From UHGV virus genome UHGV-0120264: a stretch of 12,149 nt of DNA; one strand, 5' to 3'. The number at the start of each line of letters is the position of its first letter. Position 1 is the stretch's first letter. Position numbers and translations under genes: made by a program. The DNA comes from a virus. The notes beneath the pieces were generated by a model. The model was not told the origin of the DNA and searched no databases. It saw only the letters and a list, made by a program, of their open reading frames with translations. Shown in pieces: positions 7,815-8,500 of the stretch.

Positions 7815-7840
7815 AACCCACCATCAGGTGGGTTTTTTGT
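7815..7840. terminator. Bidirectional rho-independent terminator between the convergent lipoprotein and mnt genes
   Basis: AACCCACC-ATCA-GGTGGGTT hairpin followed by TTTTTTG on the plus strand, with an A-rich tract on the other side. The mnt stop codon lies in the loop. Confidence 0.7.
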
Positions 7841-8075
7841 ACAAATCTTTCAGCGTATCAAACACCATCTTCTTAACAAGTTCGGACTGCTCATCAGCGA
7901 TTCGTTCCGCATCGTCTCGATAGCCTGAAATTTTGGATGGCTTTGATACAGCATCAGTCACTATCTGAACTAATTCTGAATTAAGAGAGCGGCAATTGGA
8001 TTTGGCTCGCTGTTTTAGTTTTTCCTTTAATTCGTAAGGTAGCCGCAGATTAAATTGCGGGTCATCTCTTCCCAT
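7824..8075 (-). CDS. mnt: Mnt-like ribbon-helix-helix repressor (P22 immI-type)
   Basis: 83-aa product MGRDDPQFNLRLPYELKEKLKQRAKSNCRSLNSELVQIVTDAVSKPSKISGYRDDAERIADEQSELVKKMVFDTLKDLYKKPT is near-colinear with P22 Mnt as I recall it. GAGG lies 8 nt upstream of the ATG. Confidence 0.85.
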   Translation of the reverse strand: MGRDDPQFNLRLPYELKEKLKQRAKSNCRSLNSELVQIVTDAVSKPSKISGYRDDAERIADEQSELVKKMVFDTLKDLYKKPT

Positions 8076-8138
8076 TCTTGATGCCTCGCTTTTGTGAGTG
8101 GATCGGCATCTTATTATCTGCTGGTTGCATCCTCAATA

Positions 8139-8153
8139 AGACCACTGTGGTCT
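8139..8153. promoter_or_regulatory. Candidate Mnt operator: perfect 15-bp palindrome AGACCACTGTGGTCT, with a second CACTGTGG core at 8176-8183
   Basis: Perfect odd-centred palindrome read directly, 64-78 bp upstream of the mnt start. It resembles the P22 Omnt palindrome (AGGTCCACGGTGGACCT) in form and partly in sequence. Confidence 0.55.
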
Positions 8154-8221
8154 CTTTGTTTGATTAATAATGCATCACTGTGGCAATGCTGCAGCGATTC
8201 CTTTTATCTGGAGCAGATTAA

Positions 8222-8287
8222 ATGACAGATATTATAAATAGGAATTGTTATTTAATAATATTTGAAAATGAAAATCATGGACGATAG
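8222..8287 (+). other. Decayed duplicate of a tailspike 5' end: RBS plus ATG ACA GAT ATT ATA AAT (MTDIIN...), then AT-rich sequence and a stop after 21 codons
   Basis: GGAG at 8210-8213 sits 8 nt before the ATG at 8222. The first six codons match the canonical P22/Sf6 tailspike N-terminus (MTDII(T)N). The real tailspike start is 279 bp downstream. Confidence 0.35.
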
Positions 8288-8500
8288 GAATAAAAGTAGT
8301 ACTTGTTATTTTTAAGTGACGCATTAAACGCATAAAGCATATGTCTGTTGATCAAGATTCTTGCTTGTTGTAAAATAATTGTTTTGTTCATGTTGCATAG
8401 TTTTAAAGTGAATAGAAGATTATTTTTCAAAACAATTGCATCTTTGTCTGCAGTCATTCCGTTTTCTTCAATATCTAAATTTTCAAACAGGATGACTAAT

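Follow-up and report, generated by a model that had tools for sequence, protein, structure and literature searches.

The mnt–tailspike interval of a deleted P22-like Escherichia coli prophage: a probable mnt-only form of immI

The window, by which we mean the whole stretch of 12,149 nucleotides that was analysed, is a 12 kb deleted P22-like (Lederbergvirus) prophage of E. coli adjoining thrS (Table 1). Over the parts that the two share, it is 100 % identical to the prophage of strain EC24. Compared with the intact relatives at the same site, E4 and MS 16-3, the window has lost the immunity, replication and lysis genes and most of the head genes, and another 4.3 kb is missing from the stretch that joins the coat gene to gene 20. 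It lacks immC, gene 23 and Plate, and contains neither a late promoter nor an antiterminator gene. The window, EC24 and one IMG/VR contig (L064) represent three different deletion derivatives of a single thrS-adjacent prophage.

Table 1. Features of the window, with the mnt–tailspike interval in detail
Feature	Position	Strand	Basis or remark
Integrase	50-1258		followed by a few leftward early genes
Coat-gene fragment	2769-3530		
gp20 homologue	3422-4786		
gp16 homologue	4786-6945		
Small hkcB-like gene	6946-7269	minus	
Lipoprotein gene	7355-7807	+	
Bidirectional intrinsic-terminator hairpin	7815-7834	both	terminator scan; AACCCACCATCAGGTGGGTT then TTTTTG
mnt, 83-aa ribbon-helix-helix repressor with C-terminal tetramerization coil	7824-8075	minus	Pfam, P22 comparison, PDB
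Mnt codon 28, TGC (Cys); GGC (Gly) in relatives	7992-7994	minus	comparison of loci
Eroded Pant remnant: TCGGCA (8103-8108), 17-nt spacer, TGCATC (8126-8131)	8103-8131	+	alignment
Pmnt candidate: -35 TTGAGG (8131-8136 reverse complement), 17-nt spacer, -10 TAAGAT (8108-8113 reverse complement)	8108-8136	minus	alignment, P22 annotation, scan
Predicted operator of Gln6-type Mnt (by homology), AGACCAC-T-GTGGTCT	8139-8153		63 nt from the mnt start codon
Leader hairpin conserved among P22-like tailspike genes, CTGTGGC-AAT-GCTGCAG, 7 bp	8178-8194	+	leader comparison
Conserved tailspike Shine-Dalgarno GGAG (8210-8213) and relic canonical start ATGACAGATATTA (8222-8234)	8208-8234	+	P22, Gally and ST160 starts
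AT-rich insert, 266 bp, 26.7 % GC	8235-8500	+	genome and phage searches
Sigma-70-like promoter candidate TTGATC-17-TAAAAT, toward the tailspike gene	8348-8376	+	promoter scan
Tailspike gene, 910 aa	8501-11233	+	Pfam; same RefSeq start in EC24, MS 16-3 and E4
Acyltransferase	11389-12123	minus	

A preliminary description of this DNA had recognized a retained mnt gene, and the assignment is well founded. The encoded protein is an Mnt orthologue, 75 % identical to Mnt of P22, in which residues 3-50 match the Pfam family Arc (PF03869, E 4.4e-21), corresponding to the N-terminal Arc-like ribbon-helix-helix domain, and residues 53-80 match Repressor_Mnt (PF11423, E 2.2e-18), the C-terminal tetramerization coiled coil. 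It also matches the two solved Mnt fragments in the PDB, 1MNT (E 4.3e-33) and 1QEY (E 2.9e-12). Its N-terminal strand, MGRDDPQFNLRL, assigns it to the class referred to here as Gln6 type. The stop codon of the gene is contained in the terminator hairpin that mnt has in common with the upstream lipoprotein gene. One residue of the window protein departs from its relatives: position 28, the glycine of the turn between helix A and helix B (N-G-R-S), is occupied by cysteine. Glycine was found at this position in 49 of 52 loci, cysteine being confined to the window, EC24 and L064, while 120 homologue cluster representatives comprised approximately 112 with glycine, five with asparagine, one with serine and none with cysteine. 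The conserved turn glycine is thus missing from the window Mnt, a change that would bear on the activity of the protein and not on its homology.

The perfect 15 bp palindrome described earlier is present at exactly 8139-8153, where it aligns with P22 Omnt and is separated by 2 bp from the -35 hexamer of Pmnt, on the upstream side. With as many as three mismatches allowed, it is the sole match in the window (0.28 expected), which at this threshold holds no further operator-like site, and a single site is present in the whole Gally genome. When IMG/VR was sampled by the similarity of Mnt proteins, and hence independently of the operator, the operator was recovered at the same offset, 63 nt from the mnt start, in all 65 loci. 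Its 13 bp core, GACCAC-N-GTGGTC, is intact in 59 of these 65 Gln6-type loci, with a variable central base (A 23, T 14, G 21, C 7). Moreover, the palindrome covaries with residue 6 of Mnt, since GACCAC is accompanied by Gln and GTCCAC by His in every locus examined. The stand-alone mnt/operator pair, with Gln6 and GACCAC half-sites, constitutes a distinct specificity class. The alignment thus identifies P22 Omnt as the positional homologue of the palindrome, and we infer from this homology that the palindrome is bound by Mnt.

A second operator core had also been proposed, at 8176-8183. The octamer CACTGTGG is indeed found there, but it does not belong to an operator; it forms the 5' arm of the conserved hairpin of the tailspike leader. 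Read as a second operator, positions 8172-8186 match at just 8 of the 14 specified positions, and beyond the octamer only one of seven flanking positions agrees, which explains why the site was missed by the three-mismatch scan. The conserved leader that precedes the P22 tailspike gene, CACCGTAGCCATGCTGCGGCAATTCCTTGCATCTGGAGCAAATTAAATG, recurs in the window as CACTGTGGCAATGCTGCAG, and the P22 counterpart of the window hairpin is CCGTAGC-CAT-GCTGCGG. Over 20 distinct leaders, 95.7 % of the cells in the hairpin are paired, and two pairs are changed on both sides. Relatives with C or G at the operator centre carry CACTGCAG or GCCGTAGC at this place, with no operator-like core. Together with the single flanking match, this indicates that the resemblance to an operator arises incidentally from the hairpin sequence that the Gally/window lineage carries.

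When the intergenic DNA next to mnt was aligned, the window, Gally, ST160 and two E. coli prophages proved to share one homologous architecture with P22, epsilon34 and MS 16-3. The region occupies the same slot, between genes 16 and 9, as the immI region of P22 (mnt - Pmnt/Oarc/Pant/Omnt - arc - sar - ant), with which it shares an orthologous mnt encoding both domains, the hexamers and spacing of Pmnt (TTGAGA-17-TATCAT in P22), a palindromic operator at a homologous position (63 nt from the mnt start in the window, approximately 56 nt in P22) and the same tailspike leader downstream. It differs from P22 in combining GACCAC half-sites with Gln6 rather than GTCCAC with His6, in the erosion of Pant, in the replacement of the Arc operator sequence, and in the absence of arc, sar, ant and the ant terminator that is present in P22 and MS 16-3. 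The loss of arc and ant between mnt and the tailspike gene, noted in the preliminary description, was borne out by all searches of the window: tblastn with P22 Arc recovered mnt itself as the sole match, tblastn with P22 Ant gave a best E of 0.34, within the tailspike gene, and blastn with P22 arc-ant DNA gave no match. In 7300-8700, Rfam yielded no match with E < 0.25, and the intergenic region was free of matches.

It had been further proposed that Mnt may now act mainly on rightward transcription toward the tailspike. Pant of P22 reads TTGACA-17-TATATT, and the homologous -10 hexamer of the window lacks A2 and T6. A consensus promoter scan that detected P22 Pant (11/12), P22 Pmnt (10/12) and Pant of L068, an IMG/VR contig with the same operator followed by arc and ant (10/12), found no plus-strand promoter between mnt and 8225 in either the window or Gally. 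A looser listing of hexamers returned -10-like hexamers only, the best -35 partners of which match at 2 of 6 positions. Given the eroded hexamers and a negative scan with positive controls, the Mnt-controlled promoter of P22 is not retained in the window. The premise that Pant transcription reads through into the tailspike gene in P22 is likewise not supported, a terminator being annotated in P22 after ant and before gene 9.

As had been stated, the gene that follows mnt is that of the tailspike. It encodes a P22-type head-binding domain, beyond which the receptor-binding part is different and carries a Peptidase_S74 chaperone domain at its C terminus. What the earlier reading overlooked is that the canonical start is a relic, now opening a 21-codon ORF that ends at 8287, and that the AT-rich insert follows it before the real start (ATG 8501), which has a Shine-Dalgarno sequence of its own (AGGA, 8489-8492). 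The insert was found in 44 of 5,426 E. coli genomes, in phage JEP4 and in 13 IMG/VR contigs; when its origin was sought in the phage collection, JEP4 remained the sole match, also after the stringency had been lowered. It precedes tailspikes of at least six lengths and is itself preceded by mnt-only regions, by complete mnt-arc-ant regions or by an IS3 element. By sequence comparison, the insert is an element that travels with the 5' end of the tailspike gene and not with mnt. The comparison with E4 places a mosaic joint at approximately 8175, at the leader hairpin. The promoter candidate within the insert, which is the sole promoter-like site found in 7700-8600, lies approximately 200 bp downstream of the operator.

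The contiguous block of mnt, operator, leader and canonical start (7824-8235) is widespread. At a threshold of at least 80 % coverage, it was detected in 112 of 5,426 complete E. coli genomes, and it is also present in phages vB_EcoP-720R6, Gally, ST160 and SE1 and in several unnamed Salmonella phages. Over this block, Gally and vB_EcoP-720R6 share 98 % nucleotide identity with the window (97.8 % for Gally). Phages L, ST64T, ST104 and SPN9CC share this layout, their mnt allele being more divergent, and phage L agrees with the window in its operator and in the N-terminal strand of Mnt. Such mnt-only 'ant morons' were described in ST64T, ST104 and Para1 by Villafane et al. in 2008 (PMC2629481), and the mnt-only layout of P22-like phages has been described in PMC8022706 as well. 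The window region lies between homologues of gene 16 and gene 9 and contains mnt and further genes without a known function, but neither arc nor ant, and thereby belongs to this group. In common with Gally, ST160, L, ST64T, ST104 and SE1, it has mnt, operator and tailspike leader, a Gln6-type Mnt and an operator of the same family; unlike them, it carries a relic start followed by the 266 bp insert and the G28C substitution, and resides in the remnant of a deleted prophage. The mnt-only arrangement is therefore already known, old and widespread, and the window represents a further, probably degenerating copy. The suggestion that a regulatory rewiring event took place locally does not survive the published layout and its occurrence in so many genomes and phages; as stated, it would change little, the arrangement having been known since 2008 and the present copy being a decayed example of it.

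The question of whether the stand-alone pair is maintained can be addressed at the level of the family. All 65 Gln6-type loci lack arc and ant and have a tailspike head-binding domain directly downstream of mnt, in contrast to the His6-type (P22) loci, where ant was present in 15 of 15; among Mnt relatives at least 90 % identical, linkage to arc/ant was never observed in the samples examined. Between the E. coli and Salmonella alleles of mnt, dN/dS is approximately 0.09-0.13 at a dS of approximately 0.5-0.6, and the N-terminal strand of Mnt is invariant. The 63-nt Pmnt/UTR region shows 9/63 differences between the E. coli and Salmonella types, as compared with a dS of approximately 0.57 for mnt. 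The DNA from the operator to the leader hairpin is poorly conserved and contains many indels, whereas the Pmnt side is conserved; as judged by this comparison, the constraint is on the mnt side of the operator. The lack of arc and ant in 65 of 65 loci, the dN/dS of approximately 0.1 and the intact core in 59 of 65 loci indicate that the Gln6-type mnt-only family is a maintained, self-contained module. The purifying selection on the mnt/operator pair argues against the published suggestion that such regions may be degrading remnants.

The reading that we favour, and regard as probable although by no means firm, is that the window region is the mnt-only form ('ant moron') of a P22-family immI, a self-contained unit of mnt, Pmnt and one operator. 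According to this reading, an Mnt tetramer would bind the 13-15 bp palindrome, as expected from its homology with P22 Mnt. With Pant gone, Pmnt would be the sole promoter within reach of the bound protein, and from this geometry we infer that the role in cis is most likely autoregulation of mnt. Counting against this, the effect of P22 Mnt on Pmnt, at the same geometry, is an indirect stimulation through the shut-off of Pant, which is missing here. The only credible tailspike promoter lies approximately 200 bp downstream of the operator, which is not placed to repress it, and the proposal that Mnt has been rewired to act on rightward transcription toward the tailspike finds no consensus-like promoter near the operator on which to rest. 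A small ribbon-helix-helix protein with a single palindromic operator next to its own promoter recalls self-regulating repressors of this fold, such as Arc, CopG and many antitoxins. Unlike in those systems, the window operator is located just upstream of the -35 hexamer and not over the core promoter, and Mnt is a tetramer held together by its C-terminal coiled coil, autoregulation being a prediction for the Gln6 type. As to the origin of this copy, recombination in the conserved leader, at approximately 8170-8178, probably linked the module to a tailspike cassette, the cassette bringing with it its own AT-rich insert and promoter-like site. The copy combines a deletion remnant with G28C and may be only partly functional.

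One possible reason why a stand-alone Mnt would be selected is that it confers immunity in trans. In phages with the same operator, whether superinfecting or co-resident, the repressor could shut off the antirepressor promoter and in this way protect the lysogen from induction. P22 Mnt acts in trans on superinfecting genomes, as is established for immI. Suitable targets exist in IMG/VR: in contigs L015, L068 and L079, a consensus-like Pant has the same operator, AGACCACGGTGGTCT, at its start region and leads into arc and ant, and the Mnt-like proteins of these contigs share the recognition strand DDPQFNLR. Contigs of this type resemble Salmonella siphophages of the ES18/SPN3UB kind, and the metagenome that yielded L079 also contains many Gally-like contigs. 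On the other hand, only a handful of targets was found, in a few uncultivated contigs, and none in the representative bacterial genomes or named enterobacterial phages checked. The named phages Midgardsormr38 and SPN3UB were considered as targets and rejected, as they carry other operators, and a search of representative bacterial genomes for the operator-plus-arc pattern gave matches only in non-enterobacterial taxa, which were taken as chance. The conservation of the operator in the prophage itself would also need another reason. We therefore regard selection for trans-immunity as a tentative explanation, conceivable but on the improbable side; it is compatible with the favoured mnt-only reading, in which the selected benefit may likewise lie in the repression of incoming antirepressor promoters with the same operator.

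A somewhat less probable alternative is that the module in the window is an inert relic, a damaged repressor in a defective prophage in which neither mnt nor the operator is now active. The state of the three deletion derivatives speaks for it, as immC, the genes for replication and lysis and most of those for the head are missing from all of them and all carry G28C, a residue that occurs in none of the other loci or cluster representatives. However, the mnt ORF, Pmnt, the Shine-Dalgarno sequence and the operator show no other damage and share 98 % identity with the versions in functional phages, asparagine and serine are tolerated at position 28 in some lineages, and the dN/dS of the family, approximately 0.1, rules out general decay.

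The reading closest to the original proposal is that Mnt, when bound at 8139-8153, controls the entry of rightward transcription into the tailspike gene as a gate, either by repressing a weak, non-consensus promoter close by on the upstream side or as a roadblock that, together with convergent Pmnt transcription, acts on read-through from the lipoprotein gene or the late operon. An effect of Mnt and Arc on read-through into the tailspike gene was a speculation of Villafane et al. (PMC2629481). Of 65 loci, 59 keep the operator core in cis, the ant terminator disappeared together with arc and ant, so that only the leader hairpin stands between the operator and the old tailspike start, and a -10-like hexamer, TATTAT (TATGAT in the Salmonella type), persists on the plus strand at 8112-8117. 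RNA-seq of the Gally prophage of E. coli LF82 is of particular relevance here: the gene-16 homologue was silent under all conditions, while in macrophages the homologue of the lipoprotein gene, mnt (40-fold), the tailspike gene (log2 fold change 4.4, approximately 20-fold) and the next gene were induced (PMC9928086). An induced tailspike gene with a silent gene-16 homologue implies that rightward transcription independent of the late operon crosses this region, or starts near it, in the lysogen. Nevertheless, the joint rise of mnt and tailspike transcripts does not fit simple repression of the tailspike gene by Mnt, of which it is the opposite. The Pant homologue lacks key -10 bases and has no good -35 partner, the DNA downstream of the operator varies while the Pmnt side is conserved, and the window has no late promoter, a strong terminator after the lipoprotein gene and a separate promoter-like site for the tailspike gene. 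Gating of this kind is accordingly judged unlikely, and it is still more doubtful that Gln6-type Mnt and its operator were selected as a gate, by roadblock and convergent Pmnt, on late-promoter-independent tailspike transcription in lysogens, although, if this were true, tailspike expression in the prophage state, as in Gally in macrophages, would be a regulated trait and not noise. A delta-mnt mutant of LF82 showed no survival phenotype in macrophages (PMC9928086). The comparative data sharpen the question of function, which this existing strain makes testable.

Some further candidate features of the AT-rich insert were considered and rejected. The minus-strand ORF at 8275-8457 (60 aa) has no Pfam match, and indels among the insert copies fall within it; a structured 5' leader is not indicated by the folding z-score of -0.49; and for a twin-arginine-like in-frame extension from GTG 8408, no word-sharing protein was found in a collection of 5.8 billion sequences. 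Among nine distinct copies of the insert, both hexamers of the promoter candidate are invariant, while the spacer between them is variable.

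The tailspike of the window is translated from the ATG at 8501, which lies past an AT-rich insert, while the canonical start of P22-like tailspikes is retained as a relic ahead of the insert. Among 5,426 E. coli genomes, 44 carry the AT-rich insert, which also occurs in phage JEP4 and 13 IMG/VR contigs; every copy, without exception, is preceded by the relic start or a close variant of it. The tailspikes encoded behind the insert are of at least six different lengths.

Features of the mnt–tailspike region and of related loci
Feature	Position	Remarks
Lipoprotein gene	7355-7807	likely start 7388; lipobox LSGC; convergent with mnt
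Mnt Gly28 to Cys	7992-7994	codon GGC to TGC; N-G-R-S turn of the ribbon-helix-helix fold
GC-rich leader hairpin, 7 bp	8178-8194	about 28 nt 5' of the tailspike Shine-Dalgarno; from alignment A2 (P22-like tailspike leaders)
Relic of canonical tailspike start, ATGACAGATATTA	within 8222-8500	Shine-Dalgarno retained
AT-rich insert, 266 bp	ends 8500	directly 3' of the relic start
Promoter-like site TTGATC-17-TAAAAT	8348-8376	inside the AT-rich insert; conserved
In-frame ORF extension 5' of tailspike start	8408-8500	GTG start in the window
Operator AGACCACGGTGGTCT, identical to that of the window	L015 302-316; L068 2546-2560; L079 7370-7384	
Mnt-like protein of different type (…EAQFHLRL…), phage JEP4	L002 2663-3010	
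Two Mnt-like genes in tandem, then arc and ant, E. coli E50	L013 3501-4145	

The insert also carries an in-frame extension of the tailspike ORF, which begins with GTG in the window as opposed to ATG in JEP4, A3 and ZH063, and from which the annotated JEP4 tailspike is begun. Its peptide (30 residues after the optional first methionine) resembles a twin-arginine signal peptide, with RRxFFK followed by an uncharged stretch and S-I-S. The start at 8408 lacks a Shine-Dalgarno sequence, and no protein in a large collection shared words with the peptide. The copies differ by four synonymous and five non-synonymous changes, with no indels. The twin-arginine-like appearance is probably due to chance, an exported tailspike isoform being the less likely alternative.

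The operator of the window recurs in three uncultivated phage contigs related to the Salmonella siphophages ES18/SPN3UB, accompanied there by a promoter (TTGACA-17-CATCAT/CATTAT), arc and ant. The Mnt-like repressor of these contigs has the DDPQFNLR strand in common with the window Mnt, but is longer and differs in its C-terminal part. Other specificity classes also occupy the mnt slot, in JEP4 and E50; the JEP4 gene adjoins the palindrome TACCG-TTT-CGGTA and is without arc and ant.

The window, EC24 and IMG/VR contig L064 descend from one thrS-adjacent P22-like prophage, each by an internal deletion of its own, and are 100% identical across their common parts. All three keep the integrase end and the end comprising the 3' part of gp16, the lipoprotein gene, mnt, the tailspike and the acyltransferase. 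The Mnt substitution was seen only in these three, all deletion remnants of the one prophage. The recombination joint of the window coincides with the leader hairpin, which is kept across P22-like phages regardless of upstream content, with some compensatory changes, and is deleted in a single contig (L137). Facing mnt is the lipoprotein gene, whose homologue GALLYPH_14 in Gally, the near-identical prophage of E. coli LF82, is listed in the tables of PMC9928086 among the top-expressed prophage genes, with a further rise in macrophages.
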